The position numbers and the translations under genes were made by a program. 16,441 nucleotides of DNA from Candidatus Rokuibacteriota bacterium (lineage in GTDB: Bacteria > Methylomirabilota > Methylomirabilia > Rokubacteriales > CSP1-6), in contig JACPCX010000129.1 in assembly GCA_016184305.1 (NCBI GenBank), positions 1-16,441 of the forward strand, written 5' to 3'. The first letter of the stretch is position 1, and each line of letters opens with the position of its first letter. A model generated the notes under the pieces. That model was not told the DNA's origin. It made no database searches and saw nothing but the letters and a program-made list of their open reading frames with translations. Shown in pieces: positions 3,376 to 8,538 of this stretch.

Positions 3376-3879
3376 ATGCCGGAGTCCTGGTCGGAGTGCG
3401 GCTTGCCCGCGGTCGAAGGCACCGAACCTGACGCCGGACCCGCGGAGGCTGGGCCGTCGGGCGCGGCAGCGCGGCCGGTCGGCTTCTGGCTTCGCGCGGC
3501 TGCCGTCGGGATCGACTGGGCCTTCATGGGAGCGGTGCAGGTGGCACTGGGCCTGATGCTTCGGGTCCTCTGGGGCCGGGCGCCTCAGGGCTCGCGGGTC
3601 TTCCAGGCGGCAGGGGTGGCGTTCGAATGGCTGTTCCCCTGCGTCTACTCCGTCCTCTTCCATTGGCTCTTCGGCCAGACGATGGGCAAGATCCTGCTCC
3701 GGATCCGCGTCGTCGCGGTGGATGGAGGCCCGCTCACGCTCGGCGTCGCCGTGCGTCGGCTCCTCGCCTGGGTGCTGTCGCTCGCTGCCCTCGGGCTCGG
3801 CCACCTGCTGGCTGCTTTTCGTGTCGACAAGCGCGCGCTGCACGATCTGCTGGCGGGGACGCGCGTCGAGCGCTTGTGA
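3376..3879 (+). CDS. RDD-family membrane protein (167 aa)
   Basis: GFWLRAAAVGID, hydrophobic helices, GQTMGKILLRIRVV...G.PLTLGVAVRR and DKRALHDLLAGTRV are RDD hallmarks. The ORF-track start at 3196 overlaps moeA, so ATG 3376 is used. Confidence 0.9.
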   Translation: MPESWSECGLPAVEGTEPDAGPAEAGPSGAAARPVGFWLRAAAVGIDWAFMGAVQVALGLMLRVLWGRAPQGSRVFQAAGVAFEWLFPCVYSVLFHWLFGQTMGKILLRIRVVAVDGGPLTLGVAVRRLLAWVLSLAALGLGHLLAAFRVDKRALHDLLAGTRVERL

Positions 3880-4203: not shown

Positions 4204-4215
4204 AGGAGGGTCGTG

Positions 4216-4551
4216 ATGCCCGCAAAGCTGTTCGTCGGCAATCTCTCGTTCCAGGCCACGGAGGAAGATCTCCGCGAGCTGTTCCAGCAGGCCGGCACGG
4301 TGGAGTCGGTGCGGATCGTGACCGATCAGTTCACCGGGCGGCCGCGGGGCTTCGGCTTCGTCGAGATGTCCTCCAAGGAAGAGGCGTCCAAGGCGGTCGA
4401 GATGCTGAATGGCCGTCTCTTCAGGGACCGCAATCTCGTGGTGGACGAGGCGCGGCCGCAGGCGCAGCGCGGTGCGGGAGGACCTCGCGGTGACCGCGGG
4501 CCCCGTCCCGGCGGCACCGGGGCCGGAGGCGGAGGCGGCTGGAGGCGGTAG
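4216..4551 (+). CDS. Single-RRM (RNP-1) RNA-binding protein with Gly/Arg-rich tail
   Basis: RNP2 LFVGNL, RNP1 RGFGFVEM, 'LNGR...RNLVVDEARP' and a Gly-rich C-terminus GGGGGWRR. AGGAGG SD 6 nt upstream of ATG 4216 (GTG 4213 is an alternative start). Confidence 0.96.
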   Translation: MPAKLFVGNLSFQATEEDLRELFQQAGTVESVRIVTDQFTGRPRGFGFVEMSSKEEASKAVEMLNGRLFRDRNLVVDEARPQAQRGAGGPRGDRGPRPGGTGAGGGGGWRR

Positions 4552-4577
4552 AGGCAGACGGAGGCCGCAGGAACGCG

Positions 4578-4605
4578 ACCCCGGGGCGGAGGCCCCGGGG
4601 TTTTT
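4578..4605 (+). terminator. Rho-independent terminator after the RRM gene
   Basis: ACCCCGGGGC-GGAG-GCCCCGGGGT 10-bp stem with a TTTTT run at 4601-4605, 26 nt after the stop, between convergent genes. Confidence 0.85.
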
Positions 4606-4663
4606 CCGGCGCATGACAACTCGCCACGTGAGGAGCGCCGGGTTTCGCCAGGCGCGCCGGCGG

Positions 4664-6949
4664 TCAGGCGTCGAGGTCGAGGGACTCCTGGGCGGCAGAC
4701 GCCGCCTCGTCCTCCTCAACGACGGGACGAAGCCCCTCCCGATCGATGAAGGGCCGGAACTTGTCCGAGAGGTCGCGGAGCTTGGCGCGGTAGTAGGCGG
4801 TGTTCTCGTCGGGTCGTCCCGCATCCCAGGAGGCGGCGAGCCTGGCGTTCTCGTTGACCTTGACCCGGGGCCCCGTGCCCGTGACGTAGTAGGAGAGCTG
4901 ATCGCCGGCCTGGTAGGGGCGTGAGGACCGGAGTGCCAGCTCGTAGAGCGCGCTGGCGTTCCGCTTCCCCGCCGTGACCTTCTCCTGGTAGCTCGGCAGC
5001 GACTCCTGCAGCGTCTCCGTCTTCATGAACTGCTGCACGGTCACGCGCCGGGCGGTGAAGTCCTCTTCCCAGCGACGCAGGAGCGCCGGGATCTCCTCGC
5101 GACGGCCCGTGAGGAGCAGGCGGAACATCTGCTCCATCCACTGGCGCTGGAAGAGCTCGAGTCCACGCGAGCGCAGGCTCGATCCCTTGATGAGGATCTT
5201 GCCGGCGGCATCCAGCAGCACGTAGTTCTTCATCTTGTAGCTCAGCATGGCCACGTAGCGGCCCGCGAGCTCGAGCTGGATGCCCTCGGGCAGGACAGCG
5301 GACAGGTCGGCAAGGAGAGCCTCGGCGGAGGCGGGTTGCGAATCGGGAGCGGTGAAGTAGATCCCGTCCGTGTCCACCTCGATGACGCTCGCCCCAAGCT
5401 CCCGCAGCCGGTGCACCAGTGCCGTCACGAGGCGCCGCCCCTCCGCCGTGACGCGGTTGGCGGCGTCGTAGTCGCTCCAGTGGGCGAACGAGGCGCCGAG
5501 GTAGCCGTAGAAGGAGTTGATGAGGGTCTTGAAGGTCTGCTGGAGCGCGGTGAGCAGGAGGCGGTCGGCCTCGGCGACGGCCTCCCGGGCCAGGCGCCTG
5601 GCCGCCAGGCGGAACTCCCGCAGGTCGCGCAGGAGCGCCGAGAAGATGCCGAGCCTGTCGGAGGCGGGCGCGATGCCCTGCGCGAGCATGAGCGAGGGGT
5701 AGAGCGAGGTGACGTCCACGTGGAGGACGTCGCGCGCGACCCCCTGCTGGAAGATCGCGGTGTAGCCCCCCGCCACCGACCGGCCGGGGCCGGGGTGGGG
5801 AACGGCCCGCCCGCGGTGGAGGTACTCCCGCAGGAGGAGCGCGTCGATCTTGGTGGCGTTGCCCCTGAGGACCACCGACTCGTAGTCGAAGGGCAGCGCC
5901 TGGGCCTGGACGAAGTAGGGCGGGGCGAGGATGGCCGACAGCGCCAGCGTCTCCAGCACGTCGTCGCGCGCGTAGGCCATGAGCCGCGCCGGCTCCTCGC
6001 GGAAGACGCGCGGGATGTCGTCCGGTGGCAGATAGGTGCGGTCCGGCGCCGCCACGCCGAAATGGCGCGCCACGTCCTTCAGGCCGTAGGACGGGAGGTC
6101 GCGGGCGGCCACGTCGTAGAGCTGGGAGAGGATCCACGTGTCCACGATGTGCCGGCCCACCACCCGGTAGCGGCGGTAGGCGATGGTCCGCTCGGCCACC
6201 TGCATGCGGGAGGGATGGCCGCGGAGCGCCGCGCCGTCACGGCCCCACGCGAGGACGACGCCATGGCGCCGCGCGCGGGCCTCCAGGTACTCGAGATCGA
6301 AGCGGAAGATGTTGTGCCCCTCGAGCACGTCGGGATCGCGCTCGCGAATGAGCCGCGTGCACTCCTCCAGGAGCGCGGCCTCGGGCATCTCCGCGCCCGA
6401 CAGGACCGTGCTCCAGCCCGACGAGTCGGCCATCGCGATGGCGATGATCCGGTCGGACTCGCGCGCCGCGTTTGGGAACTCGAAGCCCGGCGCTGTCAGC
6501 ACCTCGATGTCCACCGCCATGCGCACGATCTGGCCGAAGGTCATCCCGCGGAACGACGTCTTCCCGGTCCTGAGCAGGAACTGGTGGGTCGGATCCCCGA
6601 GGAAGCGGTACGGGGCATCCGGGGACCCCGGGGTCCGGCCCGAGACTTTCCGGCAATGGTCGCGGGCCTTCTCGGCCTGGGCCCATGAGGGGAGCACGGC
6701 CAGCCAGCGGTAGCCCTCCTCGCCGTCCAGAGGCGTGATCTCGGTGTCTCCCGTGAATCCGCCAAGGAGTGCGGCGTCGGTCAGCAGGAGGAAAGGCCGG
6801 AAGGGCAGGTCGGTCGCGACCGCGCGGCCGGCCTGCCGGGCCCAGGCGCGCACGGCCCCGTCCCGCGGCTCGAAGGCCACGAGCCCCTCGGTCGCGTCGC
6901 GGCCGAAGAGCAGGGGGTTGTCGAAGAAGAGGCGGGGGATGGAGGTCAA
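4664..6949 (-). CDS. polB: Family B DNA polymerase with intact 3'-5' exonuclease (761 aa)
   Basis: ExoI AVDIEV, ExoII GHNIFRFDLEYL, ExoIII YARDDV, motif A DVTSLYPS, motif B QQTFKTLINSFYGY, motif C EVDTDGIY, KMKNYVL...KG. TTG start directly follows the upstream gene's TAG. Confidence 0.95.
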   Translation of the reverse strand: MTSIPRLFFDNPLLFGRDATEGLVAFEPRDGAVRAWARQAGRAVATDLPFRPFLLLTDAALLGGFTGDTEITPLDGEEGYRWLAVLPSWAQAEKARDHCRKVSGRTPGSPDAPYRFLGDPTHQFLLRTGKTSFRGMTFGQIVRMAVDIEVLTAPGFEFPNAARESDRIIAIAMADSSGWSTVLSGAEMPEAALLEECTRLIRERDPDVLEGHNIFRFDLEYLEARARRHGVVLAWGRDGAALRGHPSRMQVAERTIAYRRYRVVGRHIVDTWILSQLYDVAARDLPSYGLKDVARHFGVAAPDRTYLPPDDIPRVFREEPARLMAYARDDVLETLALSAILAPPYFVQAQALPFDYESVVLRGNATKIDALLLREYLHRGRAVPHPGPGRSVAGGYTAIFQQGVARDVLHVDVTSLYPSLMLAQGIAPASDRLGIFSALLRDLREFRLAARRLAREAVAEADRLLLTALQQTFKTLINSFYGYLGASFAHWSDYDAANRVTAEGRRLVTALVHRLRELGASVIEVDTDGIYFTAPDSQPASAEALLADLSAVLPEGIQLELAGRYVAMLSYKMKNYVLLDAAGKILIKGSSLRSRGLELFQRQWMEQMFRLLLTGRREEIPALLRRWEEDFTARRVTVQQFMKTETLQESLPSYQEKVTAGKRNASALYELALRSSRPYQAGDQLSYYVTGTGPRVKVNENARLAASWDAGRPDENTAYYRAKLRDLSDKFRPFIDREGLRPVVEEDEAASAAQESLDLDA

Positions 6950-7552
6950 CTAGGCAGACTCGATCGCCTTCCGGTAGGTCGGCAGGTCCGTGAGCCCCGT
7001 GAGCCGCTGGCCGCCCTCGACGATGACCGTGGGGATGGCGCGCACCCGGTCACGGGTGAGCGCCTCCTCGTAGTCCGCGAGCACGGCCTCGCGCGCCGAG
7101 CCGCTCTCGAGGTCGGCGAGGAAGCGCGGCATGTCCGCCCCGGACTCCTGGATCACCGCGACCAGCTCCTTGGGCTGGGCGATGTTCACGCTGCGGGTGA
7201 AGAAGGCCTCGTAGAGGCGCAGGTGCAGCCGCTCGAACGCCTCGGGCCCCTGGAGCGCGACGCACTTGGCGGCCTCGAGCGCCGGCAGGGACCAGTTGGG
7301 GTAATCGTCCCGCGGCCACGGGGTGAAGCGGATCCCGTCGTCCTGCGCCATCGCATCGCAGCGGCGCCACCCCTCCTCCCGGGAGGTGCCCTTGAAGCTC
7401 ACCGTCGGGTCTGGCTCCGGACGGAGCGGGAAAGCCTTCCACTGGATGACCAGGCCGTCGCCCATCTCATCCTTGAGCCGCCGGAGGCGAACCGCCGCCG
7501 GATAGCACCAGGGTCAGAGGTAGTCGGCGTACTCCACGATGTGCACGGGCAT
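6950..7552 (-). CDS. DsbA/FrnE-family thioredoxin-fold oxidoreductase, predicted selenoprotein (UxxC, Sec at codon 13; 200 aa)
   Basis: AGGAGG SD and ATG 7552 give MPVHIVEYADYL-TGA-PWCYPAAVRLRRLKDE, in frame with the 171-aa ORF MGDGLVIQWKAFPLRP... The TGA (7514-7516) occupies the first Cys of the FrnE/DsbA 'D..CPWCY' motif. The cis-Pro loop AIPT is present at the C-terminus and a SECIS-like hairpin lies downstream of the TGA. Confidence 0.88.
7481..7501 (-). promoter_or_regulatory. Candidate bacterial SECIS element
   Basis: The mRNA after UGA reads 12 nt, then CCGG-C-GGCG-GUU-CGCC-U-CCGG: two 4-bp GC stems, a C/U mismatch and a small G-first apical loop 21 nt from the UGA. This fits the general bacterial SECIS layout. 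Confidence 0.7.
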
Positions 7553-7561
7553 GGTGAGGGT

Positions 7562-7584
7562 CCTCCTGTGCGGATTCTACCGCA
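7562..7584 (-). promoter_or_regulatory. -10 element (TAGAAT) and SD (AGGAGG) of the selenoprotein-polB unit, with a TGCGG-N6-CCGCA palindrome around the -10
   Basis: Plus attcta 7574-7579 is TAGAAT on the minus strand. Plus cctcct 7562-7567 is AGGAGG. Flanking inverted repeat at 7569-7573 and 7580-7584. No good -35. Confidence 0.55.
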
Positions 7585-7633
7585 AACGACAGCACTGGTA
7601 CGCGCGGGCTCCGTTCCGGTATGCTGTCGCCCG

Positions 7634-7702
7634 ATGAGCGCCGGAGGCGCGAAGAGGCCCAACCGCAAGGTGAAGTCATCCACGTTCAGGCGTGATCAAT
7701 GA
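7634..7702 (+). CDS. Candidate leaderless 22-aa basic uORF coupled (ATGA overlap) to the hydrolase gene
   Basis: TATGCT -10 at 7620-7625, 8 nt before ATG 7634. Translation MSAGGAKRPNRKVKSSTFRRDQ*. Its TGA (7700-7702) overlaps the hydrolase ATG (7699-7701). Confidence 0.35.
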   Translation: MSAGGAKRPNRKVKSSTFRRDQ

Positions 7703-8538
7703 CGACGCGCGCTCTCGCTCTGGTGATCGTGGCCGCGCTCCTGGGCGGGTGCGCGGGGCGCCTGACCTTCCAGAGCGTGACGCCCGGCGCTCCGGAGGAG
7801 ATCACGGCAACCCTGACCAGGCCGCCGGGCCGGGGACCGTTCCCCGCCGTCGTGCTGCTGCACGGCTGCGGCGGCGTCTCGCCGCAGCTGACGCGCTGGG
7901 CCCGGTGGCTCGCCGACCGCGGCCACGCCGCGCTCGTGGTGGACAGCTTTGGCCCGCGGAAGGTGGCGGGCGACTGCTTGCCCGACAGCCCCGACGACAT
8001 TCCCGTCACCGCGCGCTTCGACGATGCCATGGGCGCCCTTCGCTGGCTGCAGTCGCAGCCGTTCATCCGGCCGGACCGCGTCGCTGCCATGGGGTTCTCG
8101 CAGGGGGGCGTCTACGCCATCTCGGTGATCAACGGGCCGAGCCTCGAGCGGGCGCAGCGGCGCGGCGTGAAGCTTCCGGAGCCCGGCTTCGCGGCGGCCG
8201 TGGGCGTCTATCCCGGCGGGTGCTTCTCGCTGGTGAAGCAGCTCGTGGTGCGTCCGCTCCTCGTGCTGATCGGCGAGGCCGATGACTGGACACCGGCCGC
8301 CATCTGCAAGGAGATGACGGACAGCATGCGGGCGCGGGGGGCCGAGGCCTCCATCGTGATCTACCCCGGCGCCTACCACTACTTCGACGTGGAGGGGCAG
8401 CGCCTCGAGGTGCTGCCCCACGTCGACAACGACTACAGGCCCGGCGGCCGCGGCGCCACCGTCTCGTATCAGGCCGAGGCCGCGGCCGGCGCGTTCCGCG
8501 AGGTCGAGTCCTTCCTCGGGGCGCACCTCGCGCGGTGA
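7699..8538 (+). CDS. Dienelactone hydrolase-family alpha/beta hydrolase, predicted lipoprotein
   Basis: Signal peptide with lipobox LLGG-C, GPFPAVVLLHGCGG, VVDSFGPR, nucleophile elbow GFSQGG (Ser), IGEADDWTP (Asp), YPGAYHYFD (His). Confidence 0.92.
   Translation: MTTRALALVIVAALLGGCAGRLTFQSVTPGAPEEITATLTRPPGRGPFPAVVLLHGCGGVSPQLTRWARWLADRGHAALVVDSFGPRKVAGDCLPDSPDDIPVTARFDDAMGALRWLQSQPFIRPDRVAAMGFSQGGVYAISVINGPSLERAQRRGVKLPEPGFAAAVGVYPGGCFSLVKQLVVRPLLVLIGEADDWTPAAICKEMTDSMRARGAEASIVIYPGAYHYFDVEGQRLEVLPHVDNDYRPGGRGATVSYQAEAAAGAFREVESFLGAHLAR

Follow-up and report, generated by a model that had tools for sequence, protein, structure and literature searches.

A predicted DsbA-like selenoprotein gene preceding, and probably translationally coupled to, a family B DNA polymerase gene in Rokubacteria-type bacteria

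Closest described systems

DsbA-like UxxC proteins are a listed selenoprotein family (PMC1088965; PMC13188914). Form 1 of the family (UxxC, PF01323, COG2761) was originally described in metagenomic data from the Sargasso Sea (PMC1088965), and a Methylomirabilota MAG with 63 predicted selenoproteins has been described (PMC13188914). A position as first cistron before polB is absent from the descriptions of the family in the parts of these two papers that deal with it. The word “polymerase” has 0 occurrences in PMC13188914, and a connection between polB and a DsbA-like selenoprotein has not been found in the open-access literature searched.

Termination-reinitiation coupling has been described for co-directional genes (PMC6728339; PMC10666635). 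According to the sections of PMC10666635 on this subject, coupling requires overlaps or very short distances and is almost abolished by a distance of ~20 nt, as reporters in other species have shown, whereas a short 3' portion of the upstream gene is enough to sustain it. The same source reports that subunits of complexes are over-represented among overlapping gene pairs.

Selenium-dependent control of expression has been shown experimentally in Treponema primitia, where an undecoded UGA in fdhF(Sec) uncouples translation from transcription and results in less downstream mRNA, as described in the relevant part of PMC3892789. The first-pass annotation of the present locus followed the same logic and did not recognise a redox-plus-DNA-repair module gated by Sec recoding as described; selenium-dependent control downstream of a Sec codon is already known from this system. 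In T. primitia the effect is located within the selenoprotein gene itself, whereas the predicted affected product here is a separate downstream cistron.

The locus lies in a 16,441-nt stretch of DNA, referred to here as the window. The dsbA-like gene (dsbA) runs on the minus strand from an ATG at 7552-7550 to a TAG at 6952-6950 (6950..7552, 200 codons plus the stop). It is followed on the same strand by polB (4664..6949, 761 codons), which encodes a family B DNA polymerase with a 3'-5' exonuclease domain, starts with a TTG at 6949-6947, and has a frame that closes at 4664. At the junction (6947..6952, minus strand), read from the sequence, the dsbA TAG and the polB TTG share one frame with a gap of 0 nt, and all coordinates of this previously noted abutment (TAG at 6950-6952, TTG from 6949) hold on re-reading and translation. 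A 0-nt junction by itself is commonplace in operons; what goes beyond chance is the comparative picture, namely the TGA codon, the -10 box, and the abutting or overlapping stop and start across relatives.

The dsbA-like gene and its in-frame UGA

The product of dsbA matches the Pfam family DSBA (PF01323, 2.6e-21) over residues 5-197, and its AF2 model has a pLDDT of 94.3. The best Foldseek matches of the model are 2in3, YjbH, and the D. radiodurans FrnE (TMq 0.82-0.84), and DsbA-fold PDB structures match it with E values of 1e-10 to 1e-9. There is no room for a signal peptide because the catalytic motif begins at residue 13. FrnE (5co3, 5cnw, 5xwh) has the same fold, with an rmsd of 2.8-2.9 Å over ~215 columns (TMq 0.84 for 5co3 and 0.82 for 5cnw, 5xwh, and 5coh), and both proteins would be cytosolic. 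However, FrnE has only ~20% identity to the DsbA-like protein, which is predicted to have Sec in place of Cys, and it is not retrieved by phmmer against the PDB at E <= 1e-3 with the DsbA-like query. FrnE chains contain 228-245 residues with a Cys at 239 (from the entry title), while the DsbA-like protein ends at residue 200; the latter shows neither sequence-level membership in FrnE nor the extra C-terminal Cys-bearing tail.

Codon 13 of dsbA is a TGA (7514..7516, minus strand) that, read as selenocysteine, gives the motif L-U-P-W-C-Y and a UPWC active site. TGA occupies the same codon in all 14 dsbA genes compared (the window gene and 13 related genes). On the 5' side of the TGA, Y8, D10, and Y11 are invariant in the 14 genes, and the residues from P14 to R24 are conserved downstream. 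In 17/17 full-length homologues (31-40% identity), codon 13 aligns with a Cys in the motif D-Y-L-C-P-W-C, and in each case this is the first Cys of CPWC. Judged from these alignments, the TGA is very probably a selenocysteine codon. The initial prediction of a selenoprotein oxidoreductase is supported by the TGA, the aligned Cys residues, a conserved hairpin (see below), and the known UxxC family; the N-truncated calling (171-185 aa) of the database homologues listed is in keeping with it. With that family the gene shares the DSBA thioredoxin-like domain, a predicted Sec for the first Cys of CxxC, and the cytoplasmic type without a signal peptide, and a small hairpin with G in the apical loop directly after the UGA is a putative further likeness. 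Nothing essential differs, and the window gene can be considered a Rokubacteria-type member.

Two readings without Sec have been considered. The use of TGA as a sense codon genome-wide (an alternative genetic code) has been rejected because TGA terminates dsbA itself in 10/13 relatives. If the TGA were instead a true stop, dsbA would be a pseudogene, or the real gene would be a 171-codon ORF from the ATG at 7465 with no recoding. Gene callers do annotate such proteins, as the database homologues are N-truncated (122-185 aa) in all matches listed (at least 120), and no Sec machinery is seen in the window, where ARAGORN found no tRNA or tRNA-Sec and no sel genes are present. On the other hand, codons 1-12, ahead of the TGA, show protein-level conservation in 14/14 genes and encode the first beta strand (E3-9 in the AF2 model) of the thioredoxin fold, and the truncated ORF would lose the entire catalytic motif. 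Its Met30 codon is an ATG in only 5/14 genes, and the TGA aligns with a catalytic Cys throughout the homologues. A true stop is considered very improbable on this evidence, and the pseudogene reading has been rejected.

The internal ATG at codon 30 of the window gene could in principle reload ribosomes downstream of the UGA.

The hairpin after the UGA

A SECIS-like hairpin (7481..7501, minus strand) is predicted to start 13 nt after the UGA, based on folds and on near-invariance in 14 sequences. It consists of 4 bp, a C/U mismatch, 3-4 bp, and an apical loop starting with G, and it is present in the 5/5 sequences folded and in the alignment consensus. The folding energy of the hairpin is no better than that of shuffled sequences (z = -0.95 for the window sequence; 0.15, -0.77, -2.03, and 0.64 for those of four relatives), and an 81-nt stretch gives z = -1.14. 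Folding energy has been dropped as evidence for the hairpin, and conservation has been used in its place.

The sequence from the TGA to +35 is almost invariant across the 14 dsbA sequences, third codon positions included. The stem codons 18, 19, 22, 23, and 24 use a single codon in 13-14 of the 14 genes, while the loop codons 20-21 vary. The mean minor-codon fraction is 0.15 in 10 columns vs. 0.26 in the 83 others (one-sided MWU p = 0.024), and the lowest value for any 8 consecutive columns in dsbA falls on codons 17-24. RNAalifold shows 0/11 compensatory pairs among sequences that are too similar, and Rfam at gathering thresholds gives 0 matches in the window. In the deep-branching locus L030, the changes G27C and C42G shift the register of the lower stem and the hairpin is kept in the locus’s own fold, which is only suggestive as support for the hairpin.

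Promoter and leader

The single -10/SD region (7562-7579) earlier reported ahead of both genes is found on the minus strand as a TAGAAT box (7574..7579, read 7579-7574), the putative -10 promoter box of the dsbA-polB operon, and a Shine-Dalgarno AGGAGG (7562..7567, read 7567-7562) located 9 nt before the dsbA ATG. TAGAAT, TATAGAAT, or TACAAT occurs at the equivalent site 5' of dsbA in 14/14 loci, in agreement with one upstream promoter-like element common to dsbA and polB. The same -10 box stands ahead of tpr in the tpr-polB loci examined (see below). A consensus scan of 4300-7800 returned 0 promoter-like and 0 terminator-like sites; owing to the poor -35 of the window, even the conserved TAGAAT went undetected, and the scan neither supports nor excludes an internal promoter. 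The window shares the AGGAGG ahead of dsbA with L002, L004, and L006. The dsbA ATG of six more distant loci is found 6-8 nt after the -10 box, which suggests a leaderless mRNA in those loci.

The polymerase and its start codon

The polB product matches PF00136 (5.7e-22) and PF03104 (1.4e-13). Residues D147, E149, D218, D330, D412, Y417, K474, D526, and D528 are invariant in 20 PolB sequences, and we take them to be the exonuclease and polymerase motif residues. Both domains and the catalytic residues are shared with archaeal PolB (1wn7, 1qht) and with E. coli Pol II (1q8i, 3k57), but in a PDB sequence comparison the window PolB matches the archaeal enzymes better (E 4e-34, vs. 3e-14 for E. coli Pol II). 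The NCBIfam Pol II models give 85, 75, and 52 bits, far below the cut-offs (570-1435) of the Pol II equivalog level. The earlier label of a “repair-type” polymerase was an assumption and is unsupported, given that archaeal PolB enzymes are the closest relatives with solved structures.

The TTG is the first possible polB start because the preceding codon is the dsbA stop. The next canonical start is a GTG at about codon 24, the use of which would cut off N-terminal PolB residues whose conservation across 20 homologues is 90% or higher. By eye, no SD-like run is present 5-15 nt before the TTG in the window. The description of polB as lacking an ATG and an evident SD stands; a GGAAGG lies ~20 nt upstream of the TTG. 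An in-frame ATG candidate is present in 1/30 Rokubacteria-type polB genes vs. 37/46 in other phyla.

The cistron preceding polB in relatives

A DsbA is encoded upstream of polB in 13/29 evaluable Rokubacteria-type loci and in 0/44 loci of other phyla, so that the proposed dsbA-polB adjacency is real but not fixed. Among the 29 loci, a TPR gene (tpr) takes the place of dsbA in 9, both genes are present in 4, with tpr standing between dsbA and polB, and neither is present in 7. The same-strand dsbA-polB association is found in both polB subclades and in L030. In L002 and L006, which are nearest to the window, tpr separates dsbA from polB, so the window junction appears recent, and its 0-nt spacing looks like a lineage-specific loss of tpr.

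Where dsbA and tpr are both missing, 6/7 loci retain a mini-ORF of 6-25 codons that starts 6-7 nt after the -10 box; at its end it either overlaps the start of polB or stops 3-13 nt short of it. The C-terminus of the mini-ORF product resembles that of DsbA. DNA matches to the DsbA 3' end are found in L076 (E 3e-6) and L061 (E 0.002), and some of the mini-ORFs are recognisable DsbA remnants. These in-frame deletions are not fully independent because L057, L060, L061, and L076 form one clade (FastTree only). In L070 there is apparently no ORF upstream of polB. The dsbA-polB link is real, and the upstream gene is replaceable. DsbA is absent from 16/29 related loci, so polB does not need it, and the fixed redox-plus-repair module of the first-pass annotation is not sustained, dsbA being swapped for tpr or cut to a mini-ORF in the remaining loci.

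In two Thermodesulfobacteriota loci, a thioredoxin-fold (AhpC/Redoxin) plus TPR protein is encoded 117 nt upstream of polB.

DsbA and PolB could also be functional partners, with Sec-DsbA keeping PolB cysteines reduced under oxidative stress or binding as an accessory subunit, and with coupling setting the stoichiometry. The association in 13 loci from both subclades and L030, the enrichment of complex subunits among overlapping pairs (in the relevant part of PMC10666635), and the Thermodesulfobacteriota arrangement can be cited in its favour, as can the ability of DsbA-fold proteins to act as protein-binding adaptors, YjbH-Spx being among the best structural matches. The repeated loss of DsbA with polB kept, its absence from the 44 loci of other phyla, and the intervening tpr in four loci make such a partnership improbable.

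Junctions and translational coupling

In every one of the 9 relatives whose dsbA directly precedes polB, the stop and start codons abut or overlap; the distance is -4 nt in seven of them, -1 nt in another, and +4 to +5 nt in the last. In 7/9 of these loci the polB open frame has no ATG, GTG, or TTG, and the sole candidate start is the CTG in a conserved CTGA; in the other two polB has a GTG, which overlaps the dsbA stop in one and lies 5 nt after it in the other. Across the relatives the junctions are CTGA, TTGA, or taGTG overlaps or 3-5 nt gaps, and where tpr precedes polB the overlap is TTGA in 12 loci and CTGA in one. The CTG inside CTGA is also the only possible polB start in L063 and L068. 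In relatives, SD-like GAGGAAG or GAGGAGG runs have been noted by eye 7-14 nt before polB, within the DsbA C-terminal codons, and polB initiation in such loci need not depend wholly on reinitiation.

These features resemble the described cases of termination-reinitiation coupling (PMC6728339; PMC10666635, as far as these sources treat it) in the co-directional genes, in their spacing (0 nt in the window; -4, -1, or +3 to +5 nt among relatives), and in the short 3' piece of the upstream gene that is kept even after deletion. The usual overlaps are ATGA or TGATG, whereas the downstream starts here are TTG, GTG, or CTG (TTGA, CTGA), and the upstream cistron here holds a UGA predicted to be recoded. 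What is conserved is an architecture with a single TAGAAT promoter, an upstream ORF whose end coincides with the polB start or lies no more than 13 nt from it, and a non-ATG polB start (TTG, GTG, or CTG inside CTGA), and this architecture supports translational coupling. The earlier suggestion that polB relies on upstream translation is retained in that coupling is the best reading, because the stop/start arrangement recurs in relatives; the selenium-gated module attached to it is not the conserved trait.

It is possible, though rather unlikely, that the two genes are adjacent without dependence. The genes would then be co-transcribed, polB would initiate by itself at the TTG, for example from a standby site or weak SD, Sec decoding would have little effect, and the 0-nt junction would be a mere scar of the tpr deletion. 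The recent origin of the window junction, the persistence of polB without dsbA in 16/29 loci, L070, and the SD-like runs of more distant relatives are consistent with this. However, the TTG of the window is weak and has no SD-like run at 5-15 nt, and an ORF ending at the polB start is kept in 6/7 deletion variants. Efficient independent initiation is also hard to reconcile with loci in which only the CTG in CTGA is available, i.e., 7/9 dsbA-polB loci together with L063 and L068.

A DsbA-PolB fusion protein, formed by TAG readthrough in the window or by frameshifting in relatives, is suggested by nothing more than the common frame of TAG and TTG in the window. Relative to dsbA, polB is shifted to the -1 frame in the 7 CTGA loci, and the 3-5 nt gaps elsewhere alter the frame, so that no single recoding mechanism fits; no slippery site is seen by eye. 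Database PolB sequences (757-775 aa, 97-100% query coverage) have no N-terminal extension. Such a fusion is extremely improbable, and TAG readthrough has been rejected.

Proposed mechanism

We propose, with a probability of about 0.6, that the evidence as a whole is best explained by a Sec-dsbA/polB operon in which polB is coupled by termination-reinitiation and PolB is capped by Sec insertion. In this Rokubacteria/Methylomirabilota-type bacterium, a two-gene operon would be transcribed from the conserved TAGAAT promoter into a short-leader mRNA. The first cistron would encode a cytoplasmic DsbA/FrnE-fold thiol oxidoreductase with Sec from UGA13 as its first active-site residue, the UGA presumably being decoded by SelB with the hairpin 13 nt downstream. 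Since polB has a weak TTG right after the dsbA stop and no evident RBS, it is most likely translated by ribosomes fresh from dsbA termination. The selected feature would be polB as the last cistron, coupled to any upstream ORF, whether dsbA, tpr, or a remnant mini-ORF.

In the window the upstream ORF is a predicted selenoprotein gene, and therefore PolB output should be capped by Sec insertion at codon 13, leading to a predicted dependence of PolB output on selenium supply. Between the UGA and the start of polB there are 565 nt, so a ribosome released at the UGA would fall ~565 nt short, in line with the ~560 nt given originally. Selenium gating of PolB follows logically from this arrangement in the window, as a prediction for this locus rather than a trait conserved among relatives, and it looks like a by-product of operon history and not a dedicated selenium switch.

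A more specific role is doubtful, in which the Sec-DsbA cistron would be a selenium- and redox-sensing leader setting the amount of the archaeal-type PolB, or would encode a polymerase partner with a thioredoxin fold, as a cellular counterpart of T7 DNA polymerase with its accessory subunit thioredoxin. If either role were true, the CTGA or TAG-TTG junction would enforce a fixed, low ratio of DsbA and PolB, and lineages with tpr or a mini-ORF would have lost the selenium input while being obliged to retain the device for coupling.

If the preferred reading of termination-reinitiation coupling is real, the window would represent a natural case of DNA polymerase synthesis limited by the decoding of a Sec codon in another gene, and selenium-dependent polarity would reach beyond the selenoprotein gene itself into a cistron downstream. 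More robust, and perhaps more useful, is the series of variants behind one promoter (dsbA-polB, dsbA-tpr-polB, tpr-polB, and mini-ORF-polB). This natural deletion series suggests that a translated upstream ORF is what polB expression needs in the phylum.

For annotation, the consequences are that dsbA genes of this type are systematically called N-truncated and that the polB starts in CTGA loci are missed by callers limited to ATG, GTG, and TTG. Copies of polB and dsbA with 98% identity are carried on many short metagenome contigs.

Gene organization and identity of the polymerase

The window has a G+C content of 70–72% throughout and carries dsbA and polB on its minus strand. A TAGAAT box (7579–7574) and an AGGAGG sequence (7567–7562) precede the dsbA ATG at 7552, which opens a 200-codon frame with a TGA at codon 13 (7516–7514) in the motif L-U-P-W-C-Y. 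The dsbA stop codon TAG (6952–6950) abuts the TTG at 6949, from which the 761-codon polB frame runs to 4664. Re-reading and translation of the sequence showed all coordinates of the first-pass annotation to be correct. In Pfam, the first protein matches DSBA (PF01323, 2.6e-21, residues 5–197) and the second DNA_pol_B plus its exonuclease domain, while the named database matches are to Candidatus Rokubacteria or Methylomirabilota.

The polymerase residues that we take to belong to the exonuclease and polymerase motifs are all invariant in 20 homologues. Sequence comparison places PolB closer to archaeal family B polymerases (E 4e-34), with E. coli Pol II more remote (E 3e-14), and it falls far below the NCBIfam Pol II cut-offs. 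The earlier description of a “repair-type polymerase” is therefore unsupported. The JGI names on polB homologues read “DNA polymerase, archaea type”.

Codon 13 as a predicted selenocysteine codon

Eighty genomic loci encoding polymerase relatives (L001–L080) were retrieved and then searched with the DsbA-like protein. The TGA is found at the identical codon in the window and in all 13 relatives with dsbA upstream of polB; the first-pass annotation had raised whether a Sec or a Cys form lies beside polB, and it is the TGA form in 13/13 relatives. The protein is conserved on either side of the TGA in these 14 genes (D-Y-L/V-TGA-P-W-C-Y/F-P-A-A-V-R-L-R). An exhaustive profile-free search supplied 17 full-length homologues (31–40% identity), and in the alignment every one of them has cysteine at the TGA position.

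At the nucleotide level, the 14 genes show almost no variation over the 35 bases downstream of the TGA. A hairpin begins 13 nt 3′ of the UGA and consists of four pairs, a C/U mismatch, three or four further pairs and a loop starting with G. A single codon is used at the stem-arm positions in 13–14 of the 14 genes, and two loop codons vary freely. Among the conserved degenerate columns, codons 14–24 (10 columns) have a minor-codon fraction of 0.15, versus 0.26 elsewhere (83 columns; one-sided Mann-Whitney p = 0.024), and the lowest 8-column window of the gene is codons 17–24. The stability of the hairpin, which lies in a G+C-rich context, is not above that of shuffled sequence (z −2.0 to +0.6), its pairs show no compensatory change, and Rfam returned no match at gathering thresholds. 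UGA13 is read as a predicted selenocysteine codon on the basis of the conserved TGA and its flanks, the cysteine of the homologues, the near-invariant bases with their hairpin, and the suppressed codon variation.

Recognition of DsbA-like UxxC proteins as a selenoprotein family dates from the Sargasso Sea analysis (PMC1088965). A 2026 review lists the family and reports a Methylomirabilota MAG with 63 predicted selenoproteins (PMC13188914).

The best 120 database homologues are all annotated as 122–185 residues long, covering 61–91% of the query, which is what gene callers yield on stopping at an in-frame TGA. All 120 of these listed homologues are annotated in an N-terminally truncated form (mostly 171–185 aa) that misses the catalytic motif, a systematic mis-annotation of the selenoprotein family in Rokubacteria-type genomes.

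The AF2 model of the DsbA-like protein is confident (pLDDT 94.3) and resembles the cytosolic DsbA-fold proteins 2in3, the Spx adaptor YjbH and D. radiodurans FrnE (TMq 0.82–0.84). The label “FrnE-type” is thus fair for the predicted fold but not as a claim of close kinship, since identity to FrnE is only ~20%, FrnE is not matched at the sequence level (E <= 1e-3), and the window protein ends at residue 200, short of the C-terminal part of FrnE.

Distribution of dsbA and tpr upstream of polB

The polB N-terminus is present with enough upstream flank in 73 of the 80 loci, the exceptions being L010, L013, L023, L024, L027, L039 and L073. A dsbA gene lies upstream of polB on the same strand in 13 of the 73, all within the Rokubacteria-type part of the polB tree (29 evaluable loci), and in 0 of the 44 evaluable loci of other groups, which are titled Methylomirabilis/NC10, Binatia, Verrucomicrobiota and Thermodesulfobacteriota. 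The tree was built with FastTree only, and L021 sits on a long branch. Conservation of the adjacency, a point raised in the first-pass annotation, is therefore partial: the pair recurs in 13/29 Rokubacteria-type loci, but it is missing in 16/29 and elsewhere. Among the 29, dsbA is directly before polB in nine, dsbA is followed by tpr, a 164-codon TPR gene, and then polB in four (L002, L004, L006, L030), tpr alone precedes polB in nine, and neither gene is present in seven.

The tpr gene is absent from the entire window, and the nearest polB relatives are L005 (tpr-polB) and L002 and L006 (dsbA-tpr-polB). This suggests that the TAG/TTG junction arose in the window's own lineage, when a deletion removed tpr precisely between the dsbA stop and the polB start. 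The 164-residue TPR protein, lost from the window, is a recurrent neighbour of this polB family. Its gene is directly upstream of polB in L001–L008, L021, L022, L025, L030 and L063 and overlaps the polB start in 13 Rokubacteria-type loci (TTGA in 12, CTGA in one). In four Binatia-type loci (L020, L045, L048, L080), a homologue with 54–56% identity is encoded ~0.9–1 kb downstream of polB and on its strand.

Several further observations concern these loci. In L001, a 15-nt unit in three tandem copies (3440–3509) separates the AGGAGG from the GTG start of tpr, at the position that dsbA takes in other loci. In two Thermodesulfobacteriota loci (L042:1189–3780 and L044:1245–3866), a large ORF encoding an AhpC-TSA/Redoxin domain and then TPR repeats ends ~117 nt before the start of polB and is read from the same strand; it is a second, unrelated pairing of a thioredoxin fold and TPR with this polymerase family, and may be due to chance. 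Six contigs (L001, L003, L005, L007, L057, L063) have Rokubacteria-type polB, synteny and promoter yet carry the unrelated titles Limnocylindria, Deferrimicrobiaceae, Nitrosocosmicus, Nitrosotalea, Binatia and Acidoferrum, which is probably mis-binning in those MAGs.

Promoter, polB start and remnant ORFs

A TAGAAT-type −10 box precedes dsbA in 14/14 genes, and in loci that lack dsbA this box stands before tpr, often together with the same AGGAGG. In the more distant subclade, a TTGAGC −35 element lies 17–18 nt upstream and only 6–8 nt separate the −10 box from the ATG, which suggests a leaderless mRNA.

In the Rokubacteria-type group, the polB start is never a clear ATG, with an in-frame candidate in 1/30 loci (L070) versus 37/46 in other phyla. 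Seven of the nine direct dsbA-polB loci lack any ATG, GTG or TTG ahead of the conserved P-L-L-F-G in the open polB frame and share C-TGA-G-C, so the sole start candidate is the CTG overlapping the dsbA stop. The other two have a GTG start, one overlapping the dsbA stop and one 5 nt past it. A CTG within CTGA is the sole candidate in L049, L051, L053, L054, L066, L069, L072, L063 and L068, and standard gene callers would misplace polB starts in such loci.

A short ORF is kept in six of the seven loci without dsbA and tpr (6, 11, 16, 17, 22 or 25 codons). It starts 6–7 nt past the −10 box and ends 3–4 nt ahead of a GTG polB start (L057, L060, L061, L076), within CTGA (L068) or 13 nt ahead of a CTG (L052). 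Its last residues resemble the DsbA C-terminus (..A-V-Q-E-A-V-A, ..V-A-V-Q-E-L-A-A, ..L-V-E-E-A-L-A). DNA matches to the dsbA 3′ end are found in L076 (50 nt, 80%, E 3e-6) and L061 (26 nt, E 0.002), and matches to the promoter region in L057, L068 and L008; similar DsbA-end remnants ahead of tpr were seen by eye in L007 and L008. These mini-ORFs look like in-frame internal deletions of dsbA, with the start and the end of the gene preserved. Since four of the six loci belong to one clade, the six cannot all be counted as independent events.

Proposed translational coupling and selenium

The best-supported reading of the sequence data is an operon in which polB would be translated by ribosomes that terminate the upstream ORF. 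Reporter experiments in E. coli and Haloferax showed that coupling needs overlaps or very short distances, ~20 nt almost abolishing it, and that a short 3′ part of the upstream gene is enough (PMC10666635); the latter matches the retained mini-ORFs.

In the window, the upstream ORF is the predicted selenoprotein gene. A ribosome that leaves the mRNA at UGA13 would fall 565 nt short of the polB start and be unable to reinitiate there; the mRNA would also be left untranslated, which is what polarity requires. For fdhF(Sec) of Treponema primitia, selenium has been shown to control the transcript downstream of a Sec codon (PMC3892789). With this precedent, selenium limitation of PolB in the window's organism is a reasonable prediction. 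We argue that any such effect would stem from the history of the operon and not from a conserved design, since dsbA is missing from 16 of the 29 related loci, a tpr with its own ATG intervenes in four, and the window junction is recent. Two points speak against a strict dependence of polB: the SD-like GAGGAAG or GAGGAGG seen by eye 7–14 nt before polB in the more distant relatives, and, in the window's dsbA, an ATG at codon 30 that is not conserved.

The ingredients are each known, namely the DsbA-like UxxC selenoprotein family, termination-reinitiation coupling and selenium-dependent polarity. No description of a selenoprotein gene that acts as leader cistron for a coupled DNA polymerase gene, or of the CTGA/TTGA non-ATG junction series with remnant mini-ORFs, was found in the open-access literature searched.

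Flanking genes

The genes on either side of this region are stable. A divergent dienelactone hydrolase (DLH) gene lies upstream in 24 loci. In the window, it is found at 7699–8538 on the plus strand (PF01738 at 2.8e-19), and the intergenic region to the dsbA promoter side is 146 nt. Given the same divergent arrangement in 24 related loci, the interval from the DLH gene to polB stands out as a site of frequent gene gain and loss.

Downstream of polB, a convergent gene for an RRM-type RNA-binding protein is present in 24 loci. The window copy (4213–4551, plus strand, 112 codons; PF00076 at 3.3e-25) ends 113 nt from the polB stop, and its protein scores 102.7 bits against the NCBIfam Rbp_regulator cut-off of 100. 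The gene is 87–94% identical in the 24 related loci and far more conserved than its neighbours, and the spacing between polB and this gene is ~1.1 kb longer in the relatives than in the window.
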